64,000 nt of DNA from Deltaproteobacteria bacterium. GTDB taxonomy: Bacteria > Desulfobacterota > GWC2-55-46. Location: the NCBI GenBank assembly GCA_016213015.1, contig JACRCE010000063.1:39-64038 (forward strand), in the 5' to 3' direction. Positions 7,485 to 62,512 of this stretch are shown piece after piece (the first letter of the stretch is position 1; each line of letters begins with the position of its first letter). The notes beneath the pieces were generated by a model. The model did no database searches, was not told where the DNA came from, and worked only from the letters and a program-made list of their open reading frames with translations. Both the position numbers and the translations under genes were made by a program.

Positions 7485-7698
7485 GTTGCCTCTAAAAATT
7501 GCTATTTTTTCCGATTTCGGCGTCAGGGCGAAAATAAAAATGCTCACATATTATCATATATGCTCCGCTTTTTATTTCCGCTTCCATCGCCCAGCACCAC
7601 TTTGGATTACGAAAGGATGTTGTTTCCCAAGTCTCTTCGTGCAACAAAGTGGTGCTGAGGCTTGAACTCGAAAAAACTATCTAATTTTTTGAGGCAAC
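7485..7698. mobile_element. MITE-like non-autonomous element, copy 1 (about 214 bp) with terminal inverted repeats GTTGCCTCTAAAAATTGCTATTTTT ... CTAATTTTTTGAGGCAAC and an internal hairpin (CGCCCAGCACCACTT / AAGTGGTGCTG)
   Basis: Shares its termini and internal blocks (GCTCACATATTA..TATATGCT.CGCTTTTTATTT, CCCAGCACCACTT) with the 21094-21392 copy. Intergenic between mfd and the surA-like gene, and no ORF with coding signal. Confidence 0.6.
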
Positions 7699-15788: not shown

Positions 15789-17339
15789 ATGGTTTGCCCT
15801 CTAAAACTCTTTCGTCTTCAGTCTTCAGCCTTCAGTCTATCTACCTTCAGCCTAAACACCTTTATCCTTGCAATCGCGCTTTTTGCGGCTTCAACGGCCT
15901 TGGCGCAGGACGAGCCTCAAAGGAAGCCCTTGTCCCTGAGGGAAGGCGCCGCAGCCGTGCTGGAAAATAATCTCGATCTGATCGTCGAAAGGGTTGCGCC
16001 GCTCGTGGCCGCGCTTGACGTCGATTCCGCGCGCGCCGTGTACGACCCGGAGACCTTCACGCTGCTCAAACGCACAGAGGCAAAGACTCCTCTAAGCGCG
16101 CGTTCGCAAACCGCCGCTGGCGGGCTTTCTTCAAGCGAGTCGGAAGGATATACGCTTGAGGCCGGAGTGGAAGGCAGACTCGCGCTTGGCGCGAAATATA
16201 CGCTTGAGGTCAAGGAGGAGCGGACCGCCGACACCTTCAACAGATTCGAGCCGCAGTTTGCCTCGTTCGCCGGATTGAAGCTGACCCAGCCGCTGTTCAA
16301 GAACCTTGGCAGAGAGGCAACGGAATACCAGATAAACGTCGCCGGAAAAAACAGGGATATCTCCGTACACAAGTTAAAGGGCCGCCTCCTTGAAACCCTG
16401 TCCGAGTACTGCGGTGTCTACTGGGACCTCTTACAACTCAGGGAGGAGTTGAAGGTGCGGGAAGAGTCGCTGAGGCTCGCCGAAACCCTCCTTGAACTGA
16501 ATCGCAAAAAATTCAGGGCCGGCGTAATGTCGGCTCTCGACGTGAGCCACGCCGAGAGCGCCGCCGCGGCCAGACTCGATCAGGTGTTGATTGCGAGAAG
16601 GGGCGTTAAGGACAAGGAGGCGGCCTTGAAACTCCTCATATCCGGCGACGTCTATGGCATAAAGGACGTTGAACTGACGCCTTCCGAGGAGGCATCGGTG
16701 GAGCCTGTCGAGGCCAAGCTCGACGACGCGCTCAAGACCGCGTTTTCCAAGAGGCCCGACTATCTTGAGCTGAAATCCGAGATCGAAAAAAGCCGCTTGA
16801 GGATACGCTACGCCGAAAATCAAAGATACCCGCTCATCGACCTCGAGGCAAGCTACGGCTTTAACGGATTGGGGGAGACAGCGGGTCAATCATGGCGCTC
16901 CCTTGACTCCAATCCCGAATGGAGCCTTGGGGTGCGCTTCAAAATGCCGCTTGAGGGAACGGGCGCTCAGGCTGAACTCGCCGGTGCGCGGCTTGCCTCC
17001 TCTCAATCGCTTTTGAAGCTCAAAAGGCTTGAGCAGAGGACGATTATAAAGACCGACCTGATAATAAAAGACCTCAGGGACTGCTTGATAAGGGCCATGA
17101 ACGCGAAACGCTCCACCGCGCTGGCTAAAAACACGCTCAAGGCCGAGGAGGAGAAGTTGAACGCAGGACTGTCCACCACCTATTCGGTGCTCAAGGTTCA
17201 AGACGACCTTTCGATGGCGCGGCTCAACGAGATAGGCGCGTCGATAGACTACAACAAGACCCTTGTCCGGTATAATATGGAAAAGGGCACGCTGCTTGAG
17301 GCGCTTGGATTGAAGTTTGGCGACGAGACAGGCCGCTGA
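15789..17339 (+). CDS. TolC-like outer membrane efflux protein (OEP family)
   Basis: Signal peptide, then two tandem OEP repeats with alpha-helical and beta-barrel segments; 516 aa from ATG 15789. The longer ORF from 15480 overlaps the upstream gene and is not credible. Confidence 0.8.
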   Translation: MVCPLKLFRLQSSAFSLSTFSLNTFILAIALFAASTALAQDEPQRKPLSLREGAAAVLENNLDLIVERVAPLVAALDVDSARAVYDPETFTLLKRTEAKTPLSARSQTAAGGLSSSESEGYTLEAGVEGRLALGAKYTLEVKEERTADTFNRFEPQFASFAGLKLTQPLFKNLGREATEYQINVAGKNRDISVHKLKGRLLETLSEYCGVYWDLLQLREELKVREESLRLAETLLELNRKKFRAGVMSALDVSHAESAAAARLDQVLIARRGVKDKEAALKLLISGDVYGIKDVELTPSEEASVEPVEAKLDDALKTAFSKRPDYLELKSEIEKSRLRIRYAENQRYPLIDLEASYGFNGLGETAGQSWRSLDSNPEWSLGVRFKMPLEGTGAQAELAGARLASSQSLLKLKRLEQRTIIKTDLIIKDLRDCLIRAMNAKRSTALAKNTLKAEEEKLNAGLSTTYSVLKVQDDLSMARLNEIGASIDYNKTLVRYNMEKGTLLEALGLKFGDETGR

Positions 17340-17342
17340 CAA

Positions 17343-17470
17343 AAGCGCATCTGCTTTGTTGTCTCGTCGCTCCTCAACTAGCGACGCACAACAAAGTGCG
17401 TCTTGTATTCGTCGCTTCCCTATTGCATAGGGGCCGCGCATCTGCGGCTTTTTGAGCGGCCTGTTTGAAA
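17343..17470. repeat. REP-like intergenic element, copy A (GCATCTGCTTTGTTGTCTCGTCGCTCCTCA ... GCGCACAACAAAGTGCG ... TTCGTCGCTTC ... GCATCTGCGGCTTTTTGAGCGGCC)
   Basis: Nearly identical to 38166-38280. Both copies lie immediately 3' of outer-membrane protein genes. An internal inverted repeat TTTGTTGT/ACAACAAA is present. Confidence 0.55.
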
Positions 17471-17505
17471 TTAGAGTTTTTCGATAAACTGTCAGAGGCA
17501 ATAAA

Positions 17506-18715: not shown

Positions 18716-19453
18716 ATGAAAAAATATTCGAAGGCGCCCATTGAAGAGGCCGTTTTTGACATCAAAATAGACCCTGCCCTATCTATTGAAGGCAAGGATT
18801 TGGAGTCCTTGTACACAAAGGTTTCAGACCGCTATCCTATAAAGGAAATTCTAAGAACATCCGAGGTAATTAGTGAAGTAAAGGATGGAGAATTAGCAAA
18901 TGTTCAGGCAAGAAGCAAGGGAGTGGTGGGTTTTCGTTTTTGGGATAAAGAACGTAAGCAGGTATGCAATTTCGGATTGGACGGTTTCAATTTCAGCCGT
19001 TTGAGGCCATATAGCGGATGGGAAGACTGTTTTCCAGAGGCGATGAGATTATGGGGTGTTTATAAAGCGGACTTCAACCTCCATCATATCAAGCGGGTCG
19101 CCGTTCGATTCATCAATATTATCAAAATTACGGAAACTCGATTTGAACTTGCCGATTATTTTAATAACCCGCCAGCCCCCCCGACAGGGCTTCCGCAGGA
19201 TTTGACGGAATTTTTTTCACGTTTAAGAGTACGATATGAGGACGGTTATTTTGCAATTATTACCCTTGCCATACAAATGCCCGCTGAGCCAAATACCGCC
19301 TCGATACTGTTGGACATAGACGTATGCACGGAGACGCCTTTTGAAGCGGTTGATGAAGGCCGGCTTGAAAAAATCTTTGAACGCCTCCGGCATATCAAAA
19401 ATGATGTCTTTGATAAGAGCATCACACAAAAAACCAAGGAACTCATAAAATGA
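18716..19453 (+). CDS. Hypothetical protein, first gene of a low-GC three-gene cassette (the N-terminus KAPIEEAVFDIKID is reminiscent of the uncharacterised TIGR04255-type family)
   Basis: 245 aa; GC is visibly lower (about 42-45%) than the flanking genes; its stop overlaps the next start (ATGA). Confidence 0.55.
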   Translation: MKKYSKAPIEEAVFDIKIDPALSIEGKDLESLYTKVSDRYPIKEILRTSEVISEVKDGELANVQARSKGVVGFRFWDKERKQVCNFGLDGFNFSRLRPYSGWEDCFPEAMRLWGVYKADFNLHHIKRVAVRFINIIKITETRFELADYFNNPPAPPTGLPQDLTEFFSRLRVRYEDGYFAIITLAIQMPAEPNTASILLDIDVCTETPFEAVDEGRLEKIFERLRHIKNDVFDKSITQKTKELIK

Positions 19454-19947
19454 TAGACATGGCGCTTGTCCAAGTTGCTTTTAACCGTGACAATGCAAGA
19501 CCTGTAGTTGTTTGCGAAGCGGCAAAAGGAACCAACGACGAGCTTTTCCGTAGCGCGTTCCTTGACACGCCTTCAATACTCTTTAGCTGGCGTTTAAGGC
19601 TTAAAAACAGGATATACACCTTAGCTAAGGACTGTTCTTCCGAAGGGTGGAATGGCGAGGGCGCTTTTCCTATGTCAAGTGAGGCGATTAACGCGGCCGA
19701 GCGTTTTATAGACCTTTTGCCGGAAGGCGTTATGGAACCGTCCATCACCGTTGAAAACACAGGCGATATGGCATTCGATTGGGACATCGGAGCGGATATG
19801 ACCTTTACCGTTATCGTATCAAGAGACCGCGCCGTTTATGCCGGTATATTCGGCGATTCAAGACGACGCGGCACGGAAAGGATTCACAGCGAACTCCCCG
19901 GCACAATCAAAGACGTGCTGTTGGCGTACTTTAGAAAGAAAACCTGA
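19450..19947 (+). CDS. Hypothetical protein, second gene of the cassette
   Basis: 165 aa, translationally coupled on both sides; no recognisable motif. Confidence 0.5.
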   Translation: MIDMALVQVAFNRDNARPVVVCEAAKGTNDELFRSAFLDTPSILFSWRLRLKNRIYTLAKDCSSEGWNGEGAFPMSSEAINAAERFIDLLPEGVMEPSITVENTGDMAFDWDIGADMTFTVIVSRDRAVYAGIFGDSRRRGTERIHSELPGTIKDVLLAYFRKKT

Positions 19948-20369
19948 TGCCCGAACCCGCTCTTTCCTTAAAGGAGCCGGTTGAAGACGATGAGGCCATT
20001 TCCAGGTTTTTAACCGATGAAGATTCATTTTATCGGAAGACGGAAAGGGTTCATCACTCGGCCTTTAAGCTCCCGCGAGGGCACAACGCCATCTCCGTAT
20101 ATCGCACAAAAGATATGGTTGACCGCGCGATATGGGATATGGCGCGAAGATTTGTTACGGAACTCAGACCTGACCGCAAAGAGGTCTTGGCAAGGGCGGA
20201 ACTTAAAGCCGGCGACTATAAAGGGCTTCATTTAAAGTTTAGCTGGGATGGAAAACCGCATCCGAGGCATGTGAATATCGAAGGGTGGCCTTCAAGCGTA
20301 GAAGACATGCTTGCAGTAAGAAAAGAGCTTGCAAACAAAGCCCGCCTGATCAGCAAATCGGCAAATTAA
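19947..20369 (+). CDS. Hypothetical protein, third gene of the cassette
   Basis: 140 aa, start overlapping the upstream stop (TGATG); basic, with conserved-looking His/Arg patches (ERVHHSAFKLPRGH, PRHVNIEGWP) of unknown meaning. Confidence 0.5.
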   Translation: MPEPALSLKEPVEDDEAISRFLTDEDSFYRKTERVHHSAFKLPRGHNAISVYRTKDMVDRAIWDMARRFVTELRPDRKEVLARAELKAGDYKGLHLKFSWDGKPHPRHVNIEGWPSSVEDMLAVRKELANKARLISKSAN

Positions 20370-21093: not shown

Positions 21094-21392
21094 GTTGCCT
21101 CTAAAAATTGCTATTTTTCCCGATTTCCTTGTCATGGCAAAAATACACCGGTTGCCCGTCGGCTTGCGCCCAGCACCACTTCGTGCCGAAAAAGTGTATC
21201 GTTTGACAAGTCTCGTATTGCGAAGTGGCGCTGGGCGCAATAAGACGGGCTTCAAAGAGAGCGTGAGCTTCCTTACCGGGGCTAACCGCGCTTTTGCGGT
21301 TGGCCCAATGCTCACATATTAGTGTATATGCTACGCTTTTTATTTTTGCCCTTCCTCGAACTCGGAACAACTTTCTAATTTTTAGAAGCAAC
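21094..21392. mobile_element. MITE-like non-autonomous element, copy 2 (about 299 bp), with the same terminal inverted repeats as 7485-7698
   Basis: GTTGCCTCTAAAAATTGCTATTTTTCCCGATTTC at the left end and CTAATTTTTAGAAGCAAC at the right; the internal CGCCCAGCACCACTT ... AAGTGGCGCTGGGCG hairpin. Inserted between the ATPase and permease genes of the macB system. Confidence 0.6.
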
Positions 21393-21414
21393 CTTGAAAT
21401 GATAGGGATTAGTT

Positions 21415-22623
21415 ATGCTGCTCTTGAAAACCATGCAGGTCGCCTTCAGGGCCATACTGGCCAACAAGATGCGAACCGGGCTGACCATGCTCGGCATCGT
21501 CATCGGCGTGGCCGCGATAATCGCCATGATCTCCATCGGCGAGGGCGCGAAGGCTCAGGTCGTTGAGTCCATAACGAGGTTCGGCACCAATTCGCTGAGG
21601 GTGCGCCCGGGCGCGGCGCGCCTCGGACACATACAGACGGGCGCGGTAGAGACCCTTACCATAGAGGACGCGGACGTCATAAGGGCGTCGGTCGCCGACG
21701 TGGCCTATGCAAGCCCGGCTATATCCGGCACCTATCAGGTAAAGTACGCCAACAAGAACTCCACCACGCTCATTACCGGCACTACGCCCGAGTACATGAC
21801 CATCAACAATTTTCCGGTCGACACCGGACGTCTCTTCGACGCAACGGACTTAAAACTCGTAAAGCGCGTGGCGATGCTCGGCACGACCGTCAAAAAAGAG
21901 CTGTTTGGCGACGGCCCGGCGATCGGCTCCGAGATCAAGGTCTCTGGCATGAGTTTTCTCGTCATCGGCGTCATGCAGACAAAGGGGCAGACCTCGTGGT
22001 ACGACCCGGACGATCAGGTCTTCATACCCATAACCACGTCGCAAAAGCGGCTTTCAAATCAGGATCATATTAACGACGTCTACATACAAGTCGCAACGGT
22101 TGACGCGATACCCAAGGTAAAGGCCGAGGTTGAAAAACTCCTTCGCGCAAGGCACAGGATAGCCGCGGACGCGGAGTCGGACTTCAGCATAAGGGACTTC
22201 AGCGAGTTCGTGCGGACGCTCAAGCAGACGGTGAGGACGTTTTCCATCTTATTGTCCGGCATCGCCGCGGTGTCGCTCCTCGTGGGCGGCATAGGCGTGA
22301 TGAACATAATGCTCGTGTCCGTTACCGAGCGCACGAGGGAGATAGGCATCCGCATGGCCGTGGGCGCGCGCAGAGCCGACATACTGAGGCAGTTCCTGAT
22401 AGAGGCGGTTTCGATAACGATTACCGGCGGCGCTATCGGCGTAGGTCTGGGGATGCTGATAAGCAAATTCATCTCATGGTTCGGCGAATGGCAGACCATA
22501 ATAACGCCGTATTCGGTCTTGCTCGGCTTTTTTTTCGCGGTTGCGATAGGCATCATCTTCGGCATCTATCCGGCCAGAAAGGCTTCTCTTTTGGATCCTA
22601 TAGAGGCGCTGAGATATGAGTAA
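21415..22623 (+). CDS. ABC transporter permease (MacB/FtsX family, with a large periplasmic domain)
   Basis: 402 aa with an N-terminal TM, a periplasmic domain of about 200 aa, and three C-terminal TM helices with the FtsX-like motif. Confidence 0.85.
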   Translation: MLLLKTMQVAFRAILANKMRTGLTMLGIVIGVAAIIAMISIGEGAKAQVVESITRFGTNSLRVRPGAARLGHIQTGAVETLTIEDADVIRASVADVAYASPAISGTYQVKYANKNSTTLITGTTPEYMTINNFPVDTGRLFDATDLKLVKRVAMLGTTVKKELFGDGPAIGSEIKVSGMSFLVIGVMQTKGQTSWYDPDDQVFIPITTSQKRLSNQDHINDVYIQVATVDAIPKVKAEVEKLLRARHRIAADAESDFSIRDFSEFVRTLKQTVRTFSILLSGIAAVSLLVGGIGVMNIMLVSVTERTREIGIRMAVGARRADILRQFLIEAVSITITGGAIGVGLGMLISKFISWFGEWQTIITPYSVLLGFFFAVAIGIIFGIYPARKASLLDPIEALRYE

Positions 22624-22760
22624 AACCGCCTTTGTATATTCCGACAAATTCGGCTCGTTCTACTACGGCCTTGACCATCCGATGCGGGTCAAAGACGTTT
22701 CTGCCGTTTGTGCGGGCGTGGCCTTTCTCAGGACAGAGGTTTTGCCGCTTGCACAAAGGC
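22617..22760 (+). pseudogene. Possible 5' remnant (48 codons) of a histone-deacetylase/AcuC-family gene, truncated by the downstream restriction-modification insertion
   Basis: The ATG overlaps the macB permease stop (ATGAGTAA); the peptide MSKTAFVYSDKFGSFYYGLDHPMRV resembles an HDAC-family N-terminus. The ORF terminates after 48 codons and is followed by the promoter of the methyltransferase. Confidence 0.3.
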
Positions 22761-22840
22761 GCTGAAACGGAAAGATCAGGCTTGACTGCTTGCGGCGATA
22801 TTAATAATATGAAGGCGGTTCTCAGCCACGGAAGGATGCC

Positions 22841-23704
22841 ATGAAGATACCGGTTGAACTATTGCTCGGCGACTGCAAAGAGGCGCTCAAAAACCTCTCC
22901 GATGATTCAATAGACCTGATATTCACCTCTCCGCCCTACGCCGACAGCCGCAAAAACAGCTACGGCGGAATTCATCCTGATAGGTACGTTTCATGGTTCC
23001 TGCCGGCATCGAAGGAGTTGTTAAGGGTCTTAAAACCGGCGGGGACGTTTGTCTTAAACATAAAGGAAAAGGTGGTTGAGTCCGAACGCCACACCTACGT
23101 CTGCGAACTGATACTTGAGATGAAAAAACAGGGATGGCTTTGGACCGAAGAGTTCATCTGGCACAAGAAAAATTGCTACCCCGGCAAATGGCCCAACAGA
23201 TTTCGTGATTCATGGGAGAGGCTTTTGCAGTTTAACAAGCAAAAGAGGTTCAACATGTATCAGGAGGCCGTCATGGTTCCGACTGGAGACTGGGCAAAGG
23301 ACAGGTTAAGGAATCTGAGCGAAACCGACAGGACCCGCGATAATGCTAAAAACGGCAGCGGATTCGGAAAAAACGTTTCCAATTGGCTCAACAGGGACAG
23401 GGCATATCCAACGAATGTCCTGTATCTGGCGACCGAGTGCGGCAATAAAAACCATAGCGCGGCATTTCCCAAGGCGCTTCCCGAATGGTTTATAAAACTT
23501 TTCACAAAGCAGGGAGATTCGGTGCTCGACCCCTTCATGGGTTCGGGAACAACCGTGCTCACGGCATGCGGCATGAACAGGAGGGCAATCGGGATTGAGA
23601 TTCACCCGCAATACTATAAATCCGTTCAAAACATGCTGAGTCTGCAAAAAAAAACCGCGCCGGAAAGAGCCAATGAGAAGATCCAGATCGCTCTCTTTAG
23701 ATGA
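22841..23704 (+). CDS. Site-specific DNA methyltransferase, beta-class (N4-cytosine or N6-adenine), of a type II restriction-modification system
   Basis: Catalytic motif DLIFTSPPY near the N-terminus and AdoMet motif VLDPFMGSGTT near the C-terminus. Confidence 0.85.
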   Translation: MKIPVELLLGDCKEALKNLSDDSIDLIFTSPPYADSRKNSYGGIHPDRYVSWFLPASKELLRVLKPAGTFVLNIKEKVVESERHTYVCELILEMKKQGWLWTEEFIWHKKNCYPGKWPNRFRDSWERLLQFNKQKRFNMYQEAVMVPTGDWAKDRLRNLSETDRTRDNAKNGSGFGKNVSNWLNRDRAYPTNVLYLATECGNKNHSAAFPKALPEWFIKLFTKQGDSVLDPFMGSGTTVLTACGMNRRAIGIEIHPQYYKSVQNMLSLQKKTAPERANEKIQIALFR

Positions 23705-24434
23705 CATAACGGCCTATGTTAAAAAGAACGTGGGGGTGTTTCATGAAAACCGCCTGCGGAGTCTTCAAGGTTTGAAGCTGAATAGTGTAATCCCTCGGAA
23801 AAACCCATACCTTTTCAAAGCCAAGCATATCCTGAGCGCGAACGATTTTGTAAAGCTGATACTTGACGCGCATCTGTCATCGCAGGAAGAAACCATATTT
23901 GGAGACTTTCTCGAAGGTCTGTCCATCCATGTTTGCAGTAAGGTTTACGGCGGCAGGAAATCTTCCGCCGAAGGCATTGATTTGGAATTGGAAAAGGGCG
24001 GCAATAGATATATAGTGGCCATAAAATCCGGGCCTAACTGGGGAAACAGCTCTCAAATAAGAAAGATGCGGGAAGATTTCAAACGCGCAAAAAAGATTAT
24101 AAGGACCTCCGCGCCGTCAACGGCCGATGAAAACATCGTGGCCGTAAATGGCTGCTGTTACGGCAGGGACTCATCCCCGGACAAGGGCGACTATTTCAAG
24201 CTCTGCGGTCAGAGATATTGGGAGTTTATCTCCGGACGCTGTGATTTATTTACGACGATAATCGAGCCGCTTGGCGCCAAGGCTAAAGAGAAAAACGAGA
24301 AGTTCGTACGCGCCTACTCAAGGATGATAAACAAGTTTACCGCATCGTTTATACGCGATTTTTGCATAGACGGACGGATAAACTGGGAAGGCATCGTGAA
24401 GTTTAACTCGGCGGTTGAAAGATCGGATATTTAG
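23673..24434 (+). CDS. Putative cognate type II restriction endonuclease (PD-(D/E)XK-like)
   Basis: 253 aa overlapping the methyltransferase gene by 32 bp; a candidate PD...(D/E)xK core GIDLELEK; lower GC than the backbone. Confidence 0.5.
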   Translation: MRRSRSLSLDDITAYVKKNVGVFHENRLRSLQGLKLNSVIPRKNPYLFKAKHILSANDFVKLILDAHLSSQEETIFGDFLEGLSIHVCSKVYGGRKSSAEGIDLELEKGGNRYIVAIKSGPNWGNSSQIRKMREDFKRAKKIIRTSAPSTADENIVAVNGCCYGRDSSPDKGDYFKLCGQRYWEFISGRCDLFTTIIEPLGAKAKEKNEKFVRAYSRMINKFTASFIRDFCIDGRINWEGIVKFNSAVERSDI

Positions 24435-24441
24435 CGAATTT

Positions 24442-25542
24442 ATGATAATCGGCATCCCAAAAGAGATAAAAGAGAACGAACATCGTGTCGGCTGCGTTCC
24501 ATCCGGCGTAAGGGCGCTTGTTGACGCCGGGCACAAGGTTATAGTCGAGTCCGGGGCAGGCTCTGGCAGTTCCATAACCGATGATGAGTATGCGGCATCA
24601 GGCGCTGAGATCGCCCAGTCGGCAACCGAGGTCTACGGACGCGCCGCACTTATCGTAAAGGTAAAGGAGCCGAGGCCGGTGGAGTATAGTCTTATCCGTC
24701 CCGGCCAGACGATATTCACCTTTTTGCACCTTGCCGCAAACCCTGCCCTTGCAGACGGGCTCATAGAAAAAGGCGCAACCGCCATTGCCTATGAAACCGT
24801 TGAGCTTGAGAATGGAACCCTGCCTTTATTGCACCCCATGAGCGAGGTTGCCGGAAGGCTTGCCGTGCTTGCGGGCGCTCACGCCCTTATGAAGCACTAC
24901 GGCGGAAGGGGAGCGCTCCTCAGCGGCGTACCGGGTGTTGCGCCCGGAAACGTGGTCATACTCGGCGCAGGGGTTGCCGGGCACAACGCGGCAAGGGTCG
25001 CCGTTGGCATAGGCGCAGACGTTACGATCATGGACATGAACTTATCGCGCCTTCGCGCCATTGACGATACATTCCAAGGACGCATTAAAACCGTCGCGTC
25101 AAACGCATACAATATTGAAGCCGCCTTGAAAAGATGCGACCTGCTCATCGGCGCGGTGCATATACCCGGGGCAAGGACGCCAAGATTGGTAACAAGACGG
25201 ATGCTTGGTTCCATGAAAAAGGGCGCGGTCATCGTGGACGTATCGGTTGATCAGGGCGGGTGCGTTGAGACCATACGTCCGACGACCCACTCCGACCCGA
25301 CCTACGAGGTTGACGGCATAGTGCACTACGGAGTCGCCAACATGCCCGGCGCGGTTCCGAGGACCGCGACCTTTGCCCTTACGAACGCGACCCTGCCTTA
25401 CGTCCTTGCGCTCGCTAATAAGGGGTTGAAAGAGGCATGCGTTGTCATGCCGGGCCTTGCAAAAGGCGTAAACCTGCATAACGGCCTTGTTACCCATCCG
25501 TCGGTTGCCAAGGCGATCAACAGGGATTTTACGCCGCTCTGA
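24442..25542 (+). CDS. ald: Alanine dehydrogenase
   Basis: MIIGIPKEIK.NE.RV N-terminus and the NAD-binding motif VVILGAGVAG; about 367 aa. Confidence 0.9.
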   Translation: MIIGIPKEIKENEHRVGCVPSGVRALVDAGHKVIVESGAGSGSSITDDEYAASGAEIAQSATEVYGRAALIVKVKEPRPVEYSLIRPGQTIFTFLHLAANPALADGLIEKGATAIAYETVELENGTLPLLHPMSEVAGRLAVLAGAHALMKHYGGRGALLSGVPGVAPGNVVILGAGVAGHNAARVAVGIGADVTIMDMNLSRLRAIDDTFQGRIKTVASNAYNIEAALKRCDLLIGAVHIPGARTPRLVTRRMLGSMKKGAVIVDVSVDQGGCVETIRPTTHSDPTYEVDGIVHYGVANMPGAVPRTATFALTNATLPYVLALANKGLKEACVVMPGLAKGVNLHNGLVTHPSVAKAINRDFTPL

Positions 25543-26157
25543 TTATTGTCCTTGCCGCCCCTTCTTATCCAAATCGAACGGCATCTCCTTCCACTTGCCG
25601 GATTCGAGGTCTCCAAGTTCCCATTGGCCCACGCACACCCTAATGAGACGGAGCGTCGGGAGGCCCACGGCCGCTGTCATGCGGCGCACCTGCCTGTTCC
25701 TGCCCTCGATTATCGTCAACTTGAGCCACGCGGTAGGTATTTCTTTCCTATAGCGTATGGGCGGCACACGCGGCCAGATGACGTTCCCACGCTGGAGCGT
25801 GGGAACGATAGGGGCTTCGACAACCTCTGCCGTTGCGGGCAGGGTCATGCCGTCGTTCAAAGAGACTCCGCGGCAGAGTTTTTCAATGGCCTCGTCACAC
25901 GGGACGCCTTCCACCTGTGCAAGGTAGGTCTTGGGGAGTTTGTGGCGCGGGTCCGAGATGCGATGCTGTAAAGACCCGTCGTTGGTGAGCACGACGAGTC
26001 CTTCGCTGTCATAATCGAGACGGCCCGCGGCGTACACGTCCGGGACGGGTATGTAATCCGAGAGGGTTCTTCGCCCCTCCTTGTCCATGAACTGACATAG
26101 CACGTGGAAGGGCTTATTGAAGAGTATGAGCCGCGGCTTGGAGCACGGTTTTTTCAA
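25543..26157 (-). CDS. rRNA pseudouridine synthase (RsuA/RluE family)
   Basis: LILFNKP..V..., the catalytic GRLD..SEGL..LTNDG and the RluE-like C-terminus. Confidence 0.8.
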
Positions 26158-26220
26158 GTATGGCCTCTTTTTTTACTCTTGCTTGTGATTTTGCCCTGTT
26201 TGTAATATCGTAAACGCATT

Positions 26221-29061
26221 ATGCCCTTATCGTTAAACGAAATCAAAGACCGGGCGAACGCCTTCTCCCGCGAGTGGGAGGGCGAACGTTCCGAGAAGGC
26301 CGAGGCCCAGACCTTCTGGAACGATTTTTTCAACGTCTTCGGCGTAACAAGGAGGCGCATAGCGAGCTTTGAAGAGCCGGTTCAACGGGCGAGGAGTCGT
26401 TTTGAGGCAACGGGCGGAAAAGGCGGCTTCATAGACCTTTTCTGGCGCGGTACGCTTATCGCCGAGCACAAGTCTCTGGGGCGCGATCTCGACTCCGCTT
26501 ACAAGCAGGCGCTTGAATACTTTGAAGGCCTCCCAGACCGCGATCTGCCCCGCTACGTCATAGTGTCGGACTTCGCCCGCATCCGTCTTTACGACCTCGA
26601 TACCGGCAAGCACGATGAACTGCCGCTCAAAGACCTGTACAAGCACATAAAGCTCTTCGGTTTCATCGCGGGCTATGCCACGCAACGGATAACGGCGCAG
26701 GACCCGGTGAACGTCAAGGCCGCCGAGCGCATGGGAAAGCTCCATGACCGCTTGCGCTCCGCCGGTTATGAGGGGCACGTCCTTGAAGTGCTCTTGGTGC
26801 GCCTCTTATTCTGTCTCTTTGCCGAGGACACCACGCTCTTTGAGCCGCTGGGTTCGTTCCGTGATTTTCTTGAGAATAACACAAGCGAAGACGGCGCGGA
26901 CTTGGGGCCGCAACTATCGCTTCTCTTTCAGGTGCTCGATACCGTTGAGGGCAAACGCCAGAAGGGGCTCGATGAGACGTTCGCCGCGTTCCCTTACGTG
27001 AACGGGCGGCTCTTTGAAGAGACTCTTCCCATATCCGCATGCGACAAGACGATGCGCGCCCTGCTCCTCGACTGTTGCGGCCTCGACTGGGGGCGCATAT
27101 CTCCTGCCATATTCGGCGCGCTATTCCAGTGCGTCATGGACGAGGAAGGCTCTGCCCGGCGAAGAAACCTCGGCGCGCACTACACCAGCGAAGAGAACAT
27201 CTTAAAGCTCATCAAGCCCTTGTTCCTCGACGGCCTTTATGCCGAGTTCGAGGCCGCAAGGCGCAACACCAACAAGCTCTTTGATCTGCACAAAAAAATA
27301 TCGCGCTTGAAATTTCTCGATCCCGCCTGCGGGTGCGGAAACTTCCTTGTCATCGCTTACCGCGAATTGCGATTGCTTGAGCTTGAAATCCTCCGCTCCG
27401 TCCGCGCAACGGGTCAGAGGCATATTGATATATTCCAGCTCGTGCAGGTGAACGTGAACCAGTTCTACGGCATAGAGATAGAGGAGTTCCCGGCCCAGAT
27501 CGCGCAGGTCGCGCTCTGGCTCACGGACCATCAGATGAACATGCGCGTTTCCGAGGAGTTCGGCCAGTACTTCCGCAGACTGCCGCTCGTCAATTCGGCC
27601 TCCATCCGTTGCGCCAACGCCCTGCAACTGGACTGGAACGAGGTAATATCCGCTGAGCGGGTGGACTACATACTCGGCAATCCGCCGTTCGTGGGGTCTA
27701 AATTCCTGAACGACTCGCAACGCGAGGACATGGAGCTTGTGTTCGGCAAGGTCAAGGGCGCGGGCGTGCTTGATTATGTTACGGCATGGTATATGAAGGC
27801 CACGCATTATTTGCGCGGCGACGATAAGATTGACGCGCTTCTCGATAATATGCCGTCAGCGCGCAAACCTCCTCGCGAGCGGGTAAAGGTCGCCTTTGTC
27901 TCGACAAACTCAATCACGCAAGGCGAACAGGTGGGCGTAATATGGTCGGAACTGTTAAGGCTTGGGGTAAAAATCCATTTTGCCCATCGCACATTCAGTT
28001 GGAGCAACGAGGCGCGGGGCAAGGCGGCTGTACATTGCGTGATCATCGGTTTTGCCTTGCACGATACCGCCAAAAAGGTTATCTACGATTATGAGGACAT
28101 CAAGGGCAATGCCCATGCCTTGGAGGCGGGGAATATCAATCCGTATCTGGTGGATGCGGTGGATATGGTTTTGGAAAAACAAACAAAACCAATATGCACA
28201 GTACCGGAAATGAAATTTGGAAATCAGCCTATTGATGGCGGCTTCTTACTATTCACTTCTGAAGAAAAAGTAGCCTTTGTAAACGAAGCACCTACTGCTA
28301 AAAAATACTTTAGGCGATTTTTCGGGGCCGAGGAATTTATTAATGGCATTGAACGCTGGTGTCTTTGGCTCAAGAATGCAAAACCTGAAGAATTGCGCGA
28401 GATTCCAGCTATTATGAATAGATTGGAGAAGGTGAGACAATTTCGACTTTCAAGTAAACGTCCCGCGACAAACGCTCTCGCCTCAACACCGACATTGTTT
28501 GCCTTTATCTCCCATCACGAGGGAAAATATCTTCTTGTCCCAAGTGTTTCTTCCGAACGCCGTGCTTATATTCCCATCGGTTTCATGTCGTCAGAGGTAA
28601 TCGCCAGCAATCTGTGTCTTATCATCCCAAATGCCACGCCCTTCCATTTTGGTATTCTCACTTCCGCCATGCACATGGCTTGGGTGCGTCAAGTCTGTGG
28701 GCGGCTTGAAAGCCGTTATCGCTACTCGGCTCAAATCGTCTACAACAACTTCCCGTGGCCGGACAACCCCACGGACAAACAGCGCAAGGCCATTGAACAG
28801 GCCGGTCAAATCGTGCTCGACGCCCGCGCCAAACACCCCGGCTCTTCGCTCGCCGACCTCTACGACCCGGTTGCCATGCCGCCGGATCTTCGCAAGGCGC
28901 ACCAGACGCTTGACAAGGCGGTTGACGTTGCTTATGGCAAAAAGACCTTCACCTCCGACGCCGAGCGCGTTGTCTTCCTCTTTGAGCTTTACCCCAGATA
29001 CACAAGCCTGTTTCCCGGCCCAAAGGTTCGGAAGAAACGCGGAAAGAGTGCGTTGAAGTAG
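26221..29061 (+). CDS. MmeI-family type IIL single-chain restriction endonuclease / N6-adenine DNA methyltransferase
   Basis: 946 aa. The N-terminal D-x9-E-x-K nuclease motif (IDLFWRGTLIAEHK), the central gamma-class methyltransferase with NPPF (LGNPPFVGSKF) and the C-terminal target-recognition region have MmeI-like architecture and length. Confidence 0.8.
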   Translation: MPLSLNEIKDRANAFSREWEGERSEKAEAQTFWNDFFNVFGVTRRRIASFEEPVQRARSRFEATGGKGGFIDLFWRGTLIAEHKSLGRDLDSAYKQALEYFEGLPDRDLPRYVIVSDFARIRLYDLDTGKHDELPLKDLYKHIKLFGFIAGYATQRITAQDPVNVKAAERMGKLHDRLRSAGYEGHVLEVLLVRLLFCLFAEDTTLFEPLGSFRDFLENNTSEDGADLGPQLSLLFQVLDTVEGKRQKGLDETFAAFPYVNGRLFEETLPISACDKTMRALLLDCCGLDWGRISPAIFGALFQCVMDEEGSARRRNLGAHYTSEENILKLIKPLFLDGLYAEFEAARRNTNKLFDLHKKISRLKFLDPACGCGNFLVIAYRELRLLELEILRSVRATGQRHIDIFQLVQVNVNQFYGIEIEEFPAQIAQVALWLTDHQMNMRVSEEFGQYFRRLPLVNSASIRCANALQLDWNEVISAERVDYILGNPPFVGSKFLNDSQREDMELVFGKVKGAGVLDYVTAWYMKATHYLRGDDKIDALLDNMPSARKPPRERVKVAFVSTNSITQGEQVGVIWSELLRLGVKIHFAHRTFSWSNEARGKAAVHCVIIGFALHDTAKKVIYDYEDIKGNAHALEAGNINPYLVDAVDMVLEKQTKPICTVPEMKFGNQPIDGGFLLFTSEEKVAFVNEAPTAKKYFRRFFGAEEFINGIERWCLWLKNAKPEELREIPAIMNRLEKVRQFRLSSKRPATNALASTPTLFAFISHHEGKYLLVPSVSSERRAYIPIGFMSSEVIASNLCLIIPNATPFHFGILTSAMHMAWVRQVCGRLESRYRYSAQIVYNNFPWPDNPTDKQRKAIEQAGQIVLDARAKHPGSSLADLYDPVAMPPDLRKAHQTLDKAVDVAYGKKTFTSDAERVVFLFELYPRYTSLFPGPKVRKKRGKSALK

Positions 29062-29128
29062 TGAAGCCCACTTGCTTGTCCAATATTGTTATTGTCCTAA
29101 GTTACCCCTCCCCGCCTTATCCCCGGCA

Positions 29129-29156
29129 TTGACTTTTGTATATGACTGTCATATAC
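29129..29156 (+). promoter_or_regulatory. Promoter TTGACT-N17-TATACT with an embedded palindrome GTATATGAC-N1-GTCATATAC (probable BrnA autoregulation operator)
   Basis: Seen directly, 10-35 nt upstream of brnT. Confidence 0.45.
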
Positions 29157-29165
29157 TGATAAGGC

Positions 29166-29471
29166 ATGGATACGCTTGACCTTCTTCAGGAATGCACGGG
29201 GTTTGAGTGGGACGCTCACAACGCCGAGAAGAACTGGCGGAAGCACGGCGTCATGCCGTCGGAGTGCGAGCAGATATTCTTTAACCGCCCTCTCGTGGTT
29301 GCGGACGATGTAAGGCATTCCGAGAAGGAAGGACGTTTCTATGCCCTTGGGCATACGGACGGAGACAGAATGCTCTTTGTTGTGTTTACCGTGCGGCGCG
29401 ACAAGATACGGGTAATATCGGCAAGGGACATGAACCGCAGGGAAAGGGAGGCATATAAATCCCATGAATAA
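29166..29471 (+). CDS. brnT: BrnT toxin (DUF497, RelE-like ribonuclease)
   Basis: FEWD..K...N..KHGV N-terminal signature; 101 aa; the toxin gene precedes the antitoxin gene as in BrnTA. Confidence 0.8.
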   Translation: MDTLDLLQECTGFEWDAHNAEKNWRKHGVMPSECEQIFFNRPLVVADDVRHSEKEGRFYALGHTDGDRMLFVVFTVRRDKIRVISARDMNRREREAYKSHE

Positions 29472-29733
29472 GAAAATACCGAAATTCAGGAGCGAGGACG
29501 AGGAAAGGGAGTTCTGGGCAACCCATGACTCCGCTGATTACGTTGACTGGAACAAGGCGAGGCGGGTTGTGTTGCCTGAACTCAGGCCGTCGCTAAAGAC
29601 CATATCCTTGAGGTTGCCGGAGGCGATGATTGAAGAACTAAAGCTCATTGCCCATAAAAAGGACGTGCCCTACCAATCGCTTATGAAGATTTTTTTATCG
29701 GAAAAGATAAACGAAGAGATCAAGGCGCGCTGA
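29464..29733 (+). CDS. brnA: BrnA antitoxin (CopG/RHH-like)
   Basis: 89 aa overlapping brnT by 8 bp; conserved EFW..HDS.DY and C-terminal RHH-like region. Confidence 0.75.
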   Translation: MNKKIPKFRSEDEEREFWATHDSADYVDWNKARRVVLPELRPSLKTISLRLPEAMIEELKLIAHKKDVPYQSLMKIFLSEKINEEIKAR

Positions 29734-29739
29734 CCTCTC

Positions 29740-30144
29740 TTACCCGCCCCTTGCCTCGAACTTCCAGAAATCCGTTGGAGTAAGTATCTTTATCCCGCGA
29801 TAATCCTTTAGGATAAGCAGGTCGTTGTCGCCTGTAACGATGCACACCGCCTTGCCGGCGAGCGCGGCCGCAAGGACGTTGTCGTCGTCCGCGTCGCGGC
29901 AGACTTTTTCAACCAAGCCGTCAGTGCGCGTCATCTCGGCGTTGCCCATGACAAGGGCGACGACGCCCTTAACCTCGGACTTTGAAAAGTGGAATCTGCC
30001 TGAGAGTTTTTCTTCAAGCTCGTCAACTATCCATTGCGACGTGATCATTTCATGTTCGGAGAGGCAATGCTCGAAGACCTCGCTGGAGTTGCCTCTGGCG
30101 ATAAAGGCGGCGATAAGGACGTTCGTGTCGAGGAGCACCCTCAC
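29740..30144 (-). CDS. vapC: PIN-domain toxin (VapC-like)
   Basis: LLDTNVLI.A N-terminal PIN motif with acidic residues at the conserved positions (D..E..D); 134 aa. Confidence 0.8.
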   Translation of the reverse strand: MRVLLDTNVLIAAFIARGNSSEVFEHCLSEHEMITSQWIVDELEEKLSGRFHFSKSEVKGVVALVMGNAEMTRTDGLVEKVCRDADDDNVLAAALAGKAVCIVTGDNDLLILKDYRGIKILTPTDFWKFEARGG

Positions 30145-30359
30145 GAGACCTTTTTGAACACGTCTTCGTCCGTAAAGACTCCAATGCGCCCGGCCTTGGG
30201 CGCCATTATTCCGCGTAGTCTTTGGAACTCCTCCCTCACAAAATACTGGCGCAGGGCCTCGCGCACGATATCGCTTCTGTTGGTGTGCCCTTGCCTTACG
30301 GCCTCGGTCAGCTTCTTCTTAAGCGCCGGAGGAAGGCTTATCGTCATAGTCTGTCTCAT
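30141..30359 (-). CDS. vapB: Ribbon-helix-helix (CopG-like) antitoxin, VapB-like
   Basis: 72 aa immediately upstream of the PIN gene with a 4-bp overlap; TISLPPALKKKL...RSDIVREAL is a typical RHH N-terminus. Confidence 0.7.
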   Translation of the reverse strand: MRQTMTISLPPALKKKLTEAVRQGHTNRSDIVREALRQYFVREEFQRLRGIMAPKAGRIGVFTDEDVFKKVS

Positions 30360-30593
30360 TGATTACACCTCTGTAAGACAATATAATACAGAAGACGGCG
30401 CATGTCAAGCTCGACCGACGTTTAATCCGTGCAGGGTTTTATCGCCGGGCCCTTTTCCATCTCCGCGCAAACCCCAAGCCTTCAAACCCCTTGAAAATAC
30501 GCGCTTATCTCTTGACTCTCCCCGTTAAATAAGTTAACTTCATATATTCACAAATCCGGCAAGCCGGACAACATCGTAAGGACATAAAGCGTC

Positions 30594-38151: not shown

Positions 38152-38165
38152 GAAGGCCGCTGAAA

Positions 38166-38280
38166 AAGCCGCATCTGCTTTGTTGTCTCGTCGCTCCTCA
38201 CTGAGGCGCACAACAAAGTGCGCCTCATTCGTCGCTTCTCGCCGCCTCGCATCTACGGCTTTTTGAGCGGCCATCGTCAG
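38166..38280. repeat. REP-like intergenic element, copy B (same family as 17343-17470)
   Basis: GCATCTGCTTTGTTGTCTCGTCGCTCCTCA...GCGCACAACAAAGTGCGCC...TTCGTCGCTTCTCGCC...GCATCTACGGCTTTTTGAGCGGCC, immediately 3' of bamA. Confidence 0.55.
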
Positions 38281-38335
38281 TATTGGGTTTTTCGTAGCCT
38301 GTTAAGAAGGTTATTAATAATCAAGGGGGAATTGC

Positions 38336-47800: not shown

Positions 47801-49117
47801 ATGAAATACCGTCTTTACGACATCCTCCTTCACGTTGCCCTTGTAGCAGCCCTCCCGTTTTTTATAATCAAGATGCTAACCGTAAAAAAATACAGGGAAG
47901 GACTGGCCGAGCGGTTCGGCTGTATCGGCCTTGACAAGCTCAACCGGCTCAAGGGCGGCCAGATCGTCTGGTTTCACGCAATATCCGTGGGCGAGACAAA
48001 GGCGGTTGTTCCGGTGCTCCGTTTGTTCAAAGAGAGCCATCCAGATATGAAGGTCGTTTTTTCCACGGTAACGATGACCGGCAACAGGTGCGCCCTCAAG
48101 GAGTGCTCCGGCCTTGTTGACGCGCTGATATACTTTCCGCTTGACCTGTCGTGGGTCGTCAACAGGACGATAAGACTCGTAAATCCTCGTGCGCTCATCG
48201 TGGTGGAAAAGGAGATATGGCCTAACATGATATTGAGCCTTTCGAGACGCGCCGTGCCGGTGATTATCGTCAACGGCACTATATCCGAGCGTTCATTCAA
48301 ACGATTCATGCGATTCGGTTTTTTGTTCAGAGAGGTCTTTTCCGCGCTTGGTTATTTCGCGGCAAGGACTAAGGAGGATTGCGAACGGGCGATAAGGGCG
48401 GGCGTGCCCCATGAGCGCGCCGGGAACGTGGGGAATATAAAGTACGACATGGCCCCGCCGGATTCAACCTCTGAGCACAGGGTGCGGTTGTTGTCATCAA
48501 TGGCCCTATTGCCGGAGGATCTCGTTATAGTCGCGGGCAGCACCCATAAAGGCGAGGAGGAGATGATACTCAGGGCTTATGCCGGGCTCAAGCCGCGTTT
48601 CAAGACGCTCAAGCTCGTGCTCGTCCCAAGGCATCCCGAAAGATTCAACGAGGTGGAGGCGCTGATTAGAAATACGGGCAGCGCCTTTTGCAGACGCTCC
48701 AATATTACGGCGGGAGCTGAAATCATACTGCTTGACACGGTCGGCGAACTTATGAACGTATACTCCATTGCCGCGATAGCGTTCGTGGGTGGGAGCCTTG
48801 TAAAGGGCGTTGGGGGGCATAATCTCCTTGAACCCGCGCTTCATGCAAAGCCCGTTATCTATGGAGGGCATCTTACGACCTACCTTGGCATGGCCGAACT
48901 GCTTGAGGCAAATGGGGGCGGGATCAGAGTGCCGGACGAAACCTCGCTTGAGGCGGTAATCGCCGGACTTCTTTCCGACGGCGCTATGAGGGCGGCCATG
49001 GGCGAGGCCGCAAAAAAGGCGGTTGAGGCGAATCGCGGGGCCGCAAGGCGCACGGCGAGCATAATTGACGGACTGCTCCTGCCTTTTTTGAAAAAAAGGC
49101 AGGCCAAAAAACCTTAA
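47801..49117 (+). CDS. waaA: 3-deoxy-D-manno-octulosonic acid (Kdo) transferase
   Basis: 438 aa with the N-terminal TM, the WFHA.SVGE motif and a GT-B fold. Confidence 0.9.
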   Translation: MKYRLYDILLHVALVAALPFFIIKMLTVKKYREGLAERFGCIGLDKLNRLKGGQIVWFHAISVGETKAVVPVLRLFKESHPDMKVVFSTVTMTGNRCALKECSGLVDALIYFPLDLSWVVNRTIRLVNPRALIVVEKEIWPNMILSLSRRAVPVIIVNGTISERSFKRFMRFGFLFREVFSALGYFAARTKEDCERAIRAGVPHERAGNVGNIKYDMAPPDSTSEHRVRLLSSMALLPEDLVIVAGSTHKGEEEMILRAYAGLKPRFKTLKLVLVPRHPERFNEVEALIRNTGSAFCRRSNITAGAEIILLDTVGELMNVYSIAAIAFVGGSLVKGVGGHNLLEPALHAKPVIYGGHLTTYLGMAELLEANGGGIRVPDETSLEAVIAGLLSDGAMRAAMGEAAKKAVEANRGAARRTASIIDGLLLPFLKKRQAKKP

Positions 49118-49201
49118 TTAGGAATAGACATCAAGGCTGACGATTATCAATGCCGCCTGCGGCGTTTCGCACCCTTTCTTGGAAGGAAGCATGGTCAGGA
49201 T

Positions 49202-62400: not shown

Positions 62401-62486
62401 TTTTTTACAAAAAAGGGCGTGAAGCGCCGCAGGCAACAATAGTAATCGTCAGCCTTGGCGTCTATCCCCAACTAAAAGTTTTTTAG

Positions 62487-62512
62487 CTCACCTTTTTTGC
62501 AAAAAAGGTGAG
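62487..62512. promoter_or_regulatory. Perfect 12+12-bp inverted repeat CTCACCTTTTTT-GC-AAAAAAGGTGAG abutting a TTGACT-N16-TATATT promoter upstream of the MBL-fold hydrolase gene (terminator or operator)
   Basis: Palindrome and promoter-like hexamers seen directly; a T-run follows at 62522-62530. Confidence 0.4.

Follow-up and report, generated by a model that had tools for sequence, protein, structure and literature searches.

Among type IIP restriction endonucleases (REases), EcoO109I cuts RG^GNCCY and its relative AvaII cuts G^GWCC (PMC7337904), and PmeII recognises GGWCC, the modification at its sites in P. mendocina being 5-methylcytosine (m5C; bioRxiv 10.1101/2021.02.10.430591). MmeI is a single-chain enzyme that methylates only the top-strand adenine of its asymmetric site; this methylation blocks it, and cleavage, 20/18 nt away, takes place when enzyme molecules on two sites interact (PMC2582602). 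Relatives of these enzymes, together with toxin-antitoxin pairs of the BrnTA and VapBC kinds, lie around an alanine dehydrogenase gene (ald) in the window, i.e., the 64,000-nucleotide stretch of DNA analysed here. We consider it highly probable that these defence and addiction genes, all of known kinds, were inserted into the two short spacers that flank ald, within a macB-HDAC-ald-lysS-lolC hotspot (HDAC denoting a gene of the histone deacetylase family), and this is the explanation that best accounts for the locus. Gene calls came from the list of open reading frames (ORFs) and from Pfam, NCBIfam and PADLOC scans of the window, and all five defence/addiction units reported by a first-pass annotation of this DNA are present where it placed them, with strong family matches among the ORFs and in Pfam.

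The source is an uncultured Thermodesulfobacteriota ('Deltaproteobacteria') metagenome-assembled genome (MAG), and the locus is chromosomal; the next MacB and LysS relatives are labelled Thermodesulfobacteriota. As empty-site references we used the contigs encoding the closest homologues (L081, L082, L087, L088, L090 and L092), i.e., a handful of relatives. Three of them (L081, L082 and L088, with MacB 72-75% identical to that of the window) have the order macB-HDAC-ald-lysS, with lolC-lolD-bamA downstream on L081. Closer to the window, L090 (Ald 88% identical; DNA 83-91% identical) runs macB-HDAC-ald, and L092 (LysS 89% identical) runs from the 3' end of the HDAC gene through ald and a 318-bp spacer to lysS and lolC; because the 81 bp in which L090 and L092 overlap are 100% identical, the two were treated as one reference locus. 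In L087, whose MacB is 94% identical, macB is followed by the intact HDAC-family gene. The same compact order thus recurs in relatives at three levels of divergence (94%, 88-89% and 72-75% protein identity), and by this comparison the ancestral order would be macB-HDAC-ald-lysS-lolC. At the same locus, the defence genes are missing from close relatives, which supports the proposal of the first-pass annotation that the cluster is foreign to its surroundings; aligning the locus with related genomes, a check that the annotation had suggested, defined the junctions of both insertions and the fate of the HDAC gene.

The gene between both insertions, ald (24442..25542, + strand; NCBIfam TIGR00518, 518 bits against a cut-off of 392), is syntenic and 82-86% identical in DNA sequence in L090, L091 and L092, and by this evidence it is native to the locus, as had been supposed. 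Downstream of ald, homology to L092 ends at window position 25535 and resumes at 30449 (L092 1436), 145 bp upstream of lysS. What lies between is a 4.9-kb block (25543..30448) consisting of an RluE-like pseudouridine synthase gene (rluE), an MmeI-like gene, brnTA and a PIN toxin gene with its ribbon-helix-helix (RHH) antitoxin gene, and it stands in place of about 180 bp of an L092-type ald-lysS spacer. In L081, L082, L088 and L092, ald and lysS are adjacent, with a spacer of 318-374 bp. Because ald is next to lysS in these four relatives, rluE (25543..26157, - strand; NCBIfam RluE NF008487, 238.7 bits against a cut-off of 284; subfamily TIGR00093, 176.9 against 109) is not native here, contrary to the first-pass annotation, and it belongs instead to the inserted block. 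Its stop codon abuts that of ald, and at its other end rluE and the MmeI-like gene diverge from a shared 63-bp region.

Whether the block arrived as one pre-assembled mobile unit or was assembled in place, module by module, is a closer question, and we put the chance of the former at somewhat under even. Compared with the empty site, the block has just one left and one right junction (25535 and 30449), and the relatives yielded no haplotype in which it had grown only in part; the modules are, moreover, tightly packed, and promoter-like sites lie within the block for three of the four. Set against this, though not decisively, the modules differ in composition (GC 0.48 for brnA; GC content at third codon positions, GC3, of 0.44 for the target recognition domain (TRD) of the MmeI-like enzyme, and of about 0.72 for rluE and the PIN gene). 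A metagenome scan with RluE returned 78 homologous loci, the best homologues being at most 68% identical, and local tblastn at these 78 loci detected no MmeI, ald, toxin-antitoxin or other window gene as a neighbour, except for a weak LysS-family match (24%) in L103; nor did megablast of the 4.9-kb block against plasmids give a match. Neither of these last two results is decisive. The first-pass annotation had proposed a mosaic built up by successive insertions: two or more distinct sites of insertion, and a deletion apart from them, are demonstrated, but no intermediates that would document stepwise growth of the 4.9-kb block were found.

Upstream of ald, the resident gene itself has been altered. 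The first-pass annotation had made its account depend on intact HDAC-like orthologs occurring beside macB in relatives, and an intact gene, encoding 378-381 aa, directly follows macB in every relative examined (L081, L082, L087, L088 and L090). In the closest relatives, L087 and L090, it shares an identical 8-bp overlap with the macB stop. The window has at this position only a mini-ORF (22616..22765, + strand), the start of which likewise overlaps the macB stop by 8 bp, an overlap through which it would still be translationally coupled to macB. The annotation had described such a coupled, HDAC-like remnant, and both the remnant and the 8-bp overlap are real, although it has 49 codons, not 48. 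Window positions 21412-22686 correspond to L090 7642-8916 and to L087 460-1734 with 91-92% DNA identity; this identity stops after 22686 and is back at 22703-22758 (L090 9911-9966), i.e., over the last ~56 bp of the HDAC gene, at 86% and with the reading frame kept. The ends of the remnant protein align with both ends of the L090 HDAC protein. The mini-ORF is thus an in-frame, internal-deletion derivative, in which HDAC codons 1-24 are fused to the last ~24 codons at a junction at 22686/22703, with the loss of ~978 bp (326 codons).

Beyond this junction, the 3' end of the HDAC gene, with its stop region, is retained over ~65 bp before the first insertion, a 1.65-kb cassette of a methyltransferase (MTase) gene and an REase gene, begins. 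Its own junctions, at ~22781 and 24439, lie in the ~20-bp HDAC-ald spacer: Homology to this spacer in the relatives fades at ~22781 and returns at 24440, 2 nt before the ald ATG. An 8-bp direct repeat, GAAAGATC, is present at the left junction (22770..22777, + strand) and again within the last REase codons (24417..24424, + strand); the + strand of the window has only three copies in all, and that two of them bracket the cassette weakly suggests microhomology or a target duplication.

The reading given in the first-pass annotation, in which the restriction-modification (R-M) pair landed inside the HDAC gene and deleted most of it in one event, with ald and rluE both native, is unlikely. It does account for the destruction of the gene and for the presence of the cassette within 20 bp of the remnant, since a single complex event could yield both an insertion and a nearby deletion, and the host-like GC3 of rluE (0.72) is what would be expected of a native gene. 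However, with the HDAC 3' end retained and the fusion in frame, the cassette is situated past the stop of the remnant, in the HDAC-ald spacer, and both ends of the gene are kept; rluE, as noted, is absent between ald and lysS in four relatives. That the HDAC gene was mostly deleted stands, but its loss is ascribed to a separate in-frame deletion and not to the landing of the R-M pair.

If the defence genes were instead ancestral to the clade and lost from all sampled relatives, the differences would reflect deletions there and not insertions here. Defence islands are frequently lost, the relatives are few, and in composition rluE, the MmeI backbone and the PIN/RHH genes resemble the host; but the compact macB-HDAC-ald-lysS order, with the HDAC gene intact, occurs at all three divergence levels, a resident gene is broken in the window, the R-M genes deviate in GC, and the spacer sequence of L092 is missing from the window, all of which makes such a history very improbable. 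A binning or assembly chimera is barely credible: the source is indeed a MAG, and the contigs of relatives L090 and L091 break just after ald, as happens at strain-variable sites, but a Logan contig from a different run (L089, SRR12113407) is 99.9% identical to window 23116-25710 and thereby independently confirms the MTase-REase-ald-rluE joins that it spans, the flanks are colinear with relatives on both sides, and the reading frames, overlaps and promoters are intact.

Several observations do weigh against insertion into the two ald spacers, or against parts of that account. Because there is no integrase, tRNA target or att-like repeat, the region is not a classical integrative island: No tRNA gene was found in the window, no recombinase ORF in 22.6-30.5 kb, and no integrase, transposase or long flanking repeat at either insertion, the 4.9-kb block having no flanking repeat and the R-M cassette only the 8-bp one, which could be due to chance (about 2%). 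Composition gives no sign of foreignness for rluE, the MmeI backbone and the PIN/RHH genes, whose GC3 (0.69-0.72) is host-like. The right half of the block, from the MmeI-like gene to the RHH gene, did not turn up in an independent assembly, exact look-ups with MacB and PIN returning none. The scarcity of GGWCC, a likely target of the R-M pair, is non-specific: The window contains 43 such sites against 124 expected (0.35 of the Markov expectation), but CCWGG, TGCGCA, CTAG and many other palindromes are depleted as much or more. Finally, a domain-wise comparison of the MmeI-like enzyme with 127 family representatives revealed no donor for its TRD, the best TRD matches being about 50-54%.

The R-M cassette appears to be self-contained. 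At its left edge, where homology to the relatives has already ended, there is a promoter-like site (TTGACT-17-TAATAT; 22782..22810, + strand) upstream of the MTase gene; a controller (C) protein or other regulator was considered and rejected, as 22782-22841 leaves no room for one. The MTase gene (22841..23704, + strand) encodes 287 aa matching Pfam N6_N4_Mtase (PF01555, E = 2.7e-44), and because motif IV (DLIFTSPPY, with SPPY) at residue 30 precedes motif I (FMGSG) at residue 232, it has the beta-class order of motifs. Its best match in the PDB is the N4-cytosine MTase M.PvuII (1.5e-28), as against about 1e-9 for the N6-adenine beta-class enzymes MboIIA and RsrI. The SPPY motif is typical of N4-cytosine MTases, and the enzyme is probably N4-cytosine specific. 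The first-pass annotation had correctly described a beta-class MTase gene overlapping by 32 bp the gene for a 253-aa endonuclease, both lower in GC: The overlap is exactly 32 bp, and the two genes have a GC content of 0.47-0.49 and a GC3 of 0.56-0.63, compared with 0.55-0.60 and about 0.71 for the flanking genes.

The overlapping gene (23673..24434, + strand) encodes a type IIP REase of the EcoO109I/PmeII family, the match to Pfam RE_EcoO109I (PF14511, E = 6.5e-84) extending from position 2 to position 198 of the 198-position profile. A single-sequence search of the PDB gave no match even at E = 10, with no direct pairwise match to EcoO109I, but a three-sequence profile built from this REase and two homologues matched EcoO109I (1WTD) at E = 1e-7. 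In an alignment of just these three homologues, the candidates for PD-(D/E)XK-type catalytic residues, E72/E73, D103 and K118, do not vary, and the last two of them fall opposite the EID and SLK segments of EcoO109I. Because the REase is recognised by no PADLOC or NCBIfam model, pipelines that rely only on these two collections would see an orphan MTase, lacking its partner endonuclease.

Homologues of this REase occur on plasmids. By tblastn, proteins 46-51% identical to it are encoded on small plasmids, mostly typed as mobilizable, from genera that include Aeromonas, Klebsiella and Salmonella, and one of 38% identity on an Acinetobacter plasmid; the majority are annotated as 'PmeII family type II restriction endonuclease'. 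Two of these plasmids were examined, Aeromonas pO23AP2 and the Acinetobacter plasmid; in each, the REase gene is preceded by an MTase gene that overlaps it, and the pair on pO23AP2 is 65% (MTase) and 50% (REase) identical to that in the window. Since the two genes are conserved together on plasmids, the pair moves as a unit. Going by its family, the REase probably cuts a GGNCC/GGWCC-type site, with the host protected by N4-methylcytosine (m4C).

In the second insertion, the largest gene (26221..29061, + strand) encodes a 946-aa single-chain R-M enzyme of the MmeI family (type IIL/IIG). The first-pass annotation had recognised it from its D-x9-E-x-K and NPPF motifs, and this assignment is borne out by five Pfam domains (MmeI_N, MmeI_hel, MmeI_Mtase, MmeI_TRD and MmeI_C), each matched above threshold and over nearly its whole length (E from 6e-92 to 5e-22), by a PADLOC REase_MTase_IIG score of 1218.6 bits, and by alignment with MmeI itself (PDB 5HR4; 1171.6 bits, 57.8% identity over 917 aligned residues). 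The nuclease motif D72-x9-E82-x-K84 aligns with D70/E80/K82 of MmeI, and MTase motifs I, DPACGCG(NF), and IV, NPPF, are at residues 367 and 487. No second MTase gene adjoins it: The neighbours are rluE and brnT, and the one remaining MTase, encoded at 22841, has an REase partner of its own.

Because the residues that set specificity in this family have been validated experimentally (PMC2731914; PMC4833311), a recognition site could be read by mapping that code onto the alignment. At position 6, E830/R832 would specify C; position 5 would be the methylated A; L798/R834 predicts G only at position 4, as in MmeI A774L and NmeAIII; and S775/N797, the pair found in NmeAIII, predicts C at position 3. 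For position 2, the pair F666/Q669 is absent from the combinations in PMC4833311, and for position 1, R747 (MmeI A723) would favour C, with which Arg or Lys correlates, but F762 is not the usual Glu. The predicted site is therefore NNCGAC, perhaps CNCGAC, and not the TCCRAC of MmeI; site-avoidance statistics in the window were flat for all NNCGAC variants.

The part of the gene in which most of these determinants lie departs from the rest in composition. GC3 is 0.72 for codons 1-646 and 0.73 for codons 849-946, but 0.44 across the Pfam TRD (codons 647-848), falling to 0.28-0.45 in a segment that coincides with the TRD (28140..28650, + strand; codons ~640-810); by comparison, 13 other genes in the window, measured over stretches of 200 codons, have a mean of 0.713 +/- 0.045 and never fall below 0.58. 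The low-GC3 segment holds L798 and the residues that determine positions 1-3, and E830, R832 and R834 are in host-like sequence. Across the 127 family representatives, the identities of backbone and TRD to the query are uncorrelated (r = 0.01), some members being 50-51% identical in the TRD but only 34-37% in the backbone. The contrast in GC3 between the TRD and the rest of the gene suggests a recombinational swap, and we lean towards the view that part of the TRD was brought in by recombination with a lower-GC homologue, making the enzyme a natural chimera.

Such a chimera, with a new, NNCGAC-type specificity as its outcome, we rank as more likely than another idea raised by the block, namely that the RluE-like synthase is no displaced housekeeping gene product but cargo functionally tied to it, for example through a modification of rRNA or tRNA that makes this RNA resistant to the BrnT or PIN ribonucleases, or through a defence role of its own. 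This we regard as quite improbable.

The remaining genes of the block form two toxin-antitoxin pairs, both of which had been identified in the first-pass annotation, the first as BrnT/BrnA with a promoter palindrome and the second as VapB/VapC on the opposite strand. Of the BrnTA pair, brnT comes first (29166..29471, + strand; BrnT_toxin PF04365, E = 5.6e-28, 97.5 bits against a cut-off of 34.5), overlapped by 8 bp by brnA (29464..29733, + strand; CopG_antitoxin PF12441, E = 2.2e-33, 115.3 bits against 28), and the BrnT protein matches the toxin in PDB 7VD7 at 1.4e-10. Upstream is a promoter-like site (TTGACT-17-TATACT; 29129..29157, + strand) containing a perfect 19-bp palindrome, GTATATGACTGTCATATAC (9+1+9; 29138-29156), which lies between and over the -35 and -10 hexamers and is presumed to be the BrnA operator. 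The second pair is encoded on the - strand: The RHH antitoxin gene (30141..30359; RHH_1, E = 3e-9) is upstream of the PIN_3-family toxin gene (29740..30144; PF13470, E = 1.5e-15, 58.4 bits against a cut-off of 27; TIGR00305, 58.6 against 29) and overlaps it by 4 bp, a VapBC-like layout, and a promoter-like site (TTGACA-17-TATATT; 30380..30408, - strand; 11 of 12 consensus matches) precedes the operon, still inside the block. By eye only, acidic residues of the PIN protein (D6, E42, D84-88 and D106/108) are at the expected places; the canonical PIN model PF01850 scores just under its cut-off (23.5 against 23.6 bits), and a PDB sequence search with the protein found no relative.

Taken together, these findings are consistent with a history of three events, the order of which is conjectural. 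In event A, a self-contained 1.65-kb type IIP R-M cassette with its own promoter, of the same kind as travels on small mobilizable plasmids, would have entered the ~20-bp HDAC-ald spacer; its REase would attack incoming DNA at GGNCC/GGWCC-type sites that lack methylation, its MTase would shield the host, and the pair could double as an addiction module. In event B, an in-frame deletion of ~978 bp would have reduced the HDAC-family gene to the 49-codon mini-ORF made of its two ends. In event C, the 4.9-kb block, with its four units, would have replaced about 180 bp of the ald-lysS spacer. By analogy with MmeI, the large enzyme of this block would methylate a single adenine, on only one strand of its asymmetric 6-bp site, and would cut about 20/18 nt downstream once two sites are occupied, its TRD probably having been grafted by recombination from a lower-GC homologue; brnTA would supply a ribonuclease toxin and an RHH antitoxin that represses the palindromic operator.

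A MITE-like element (resembling miniature inverted-repeat transposable elements), with 16-bp terminal inverted repeats GTTGCCTC(T/A)AAAAATT, is present at window 21094-21392 and 7485-7698. The 299-bp copy lies between the macB ATPase and permease genes, where the spacer in L087, the 94% relative, is 16 bp; it folds at -125.5 kcal/mol (z = -8.7) and includes a long hairpin, CCCAGCACCACTT...AAGTGGCGCTGGG. The 214-bp copy has the ends and a 39-nt module in common with the 299-bp copy, its interior being arranged differently, and an Rfam scan of the whole window returned no family, the MITE-like element included. Intergenic modules are shared among window 21234-21308, L092 1348-1418 and 1256-1322, and window 49082-49143 and 62446-62512: Within the L092 ald-lysS spacer, the very sequence displaced by the 4.9-kb block, one part has 80% identity with the inner portion of the MITE-like element, and another part, a 67-nt hairpin module, also occurs at two places in the window and at one in L090. 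Intergenic repeats of this kind may serve as recombination substrates at the hotspot.

Further upstream in the same efflux operon, between the membrane fusion protein (MFP) and macB ATPase genes, window 18716-20369 holds three co-directional ORFs (245, 165 and 140 aa; GC3 0.43-0.52) with no Pfam match, the 140-aa ORF also having no PADLOC match. Compared from window 19001, they are 83% identical in DNA to L090, where the ORFs encode 168, 101 and 140 aa, and they are absent from L081, L082 and L088, in which the MFP and ATPase genes adjoin; this looks like an older insertion into the operon. Direct repeats at window 17330-17483 and 38154-38294 (47 nt at 94% and 51 nt at 76%), both intergenic and just past long genes, may be a terminator-like element. 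At 2451-2828, three tandem 72-nt units spaced by 153 bp and 64-79% identical lie in or next to an ORF (2243-2806) that possibly encodes a repeat-domain protein. Over the whole window, palindromes are rare (observed against expected: TGCGCA, 0 against 16; CCWGG, 12 against 87; TTTAAA, 1 against 11.5; CTAG, 6 against 48), and this general avoidance suggests long exposure to many type II R-M systems.

Every unit in this cluster is a member of a described family, and the whole is a typical defence/addiction cluster, not a new system. Its direct value is modest, and a specialist would not be surprised by it. What is new are details: the exact junctions, the in-frame collapse of the HDAC gene, the non-native rluE, the probably new specificity in the MmeI family, and the seam around the TRD. 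The locus provides a base-resolved example of defence genes gathering in short spacers round a housekeeping gene in the absence of any recognisable recombinase, with a resident gene caught after its collapse to an in-frame mini-ORF. NNCGAC is a candidate new specificity for the MmeI family, with possible use as a reagent, and the composition of the gene offers evidence for natural exchange of TRDs.

Compared with the described systems, each module is conventional in most respects and divergent in a few. As in the EcoO109I/PmeII systems, the REase matches RE_EcoO109I from end to end and the M gene precedes the R gene with an overlap, an arrangement also found in the plasmid homologues; unlike EcoO109I and PmeII, it is accompanied by a beta-class amino-MTase nearest to M.PvuII, whereas the PmeII-site modification in P. 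mendocina is m5C, and it lacks a direct pairwise sequence match to EcoO109I. The PIN/RHH pair resembles VapBC in having an RHH antitoxin gene that is upstream of and overlaps the PIN toxin gene, and perhaps in its acidic residues, but its toxin belongs to the PIN_3/TIGR00305 branch and falls just short of the PF01850 threshold. The MmeI-like enzyme differs from MmeI in the residues for positions 1-4 (R747/A761/F762, F666/Q669, S775 and L798), in an 18-residue insertion in the MTase domain, and in a TRD segment that is strongly deviant in codon composition; it nevertheless shares with MmeI the E/R pair by which C is read at position 6, and with MmeI and other type IIL enzymes (NmeAIII among them) the full-length, five-domain architecture with nuclease and MTase motifs and no separate MTase gene next door. 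Although the BrnA protein, with a score of 51.5, falls short of the NCBIfam equivalog cut-off of 60, the BrnTA pair follows the Brucella abortus prototype in combining a BrnT_toxin with a CopG-type BrnA, in placing the toxin gene first and in the overlap of the two genes, and its promoter carries a palindrome of the kind expected for autoregulation by an RHH antitoxin.

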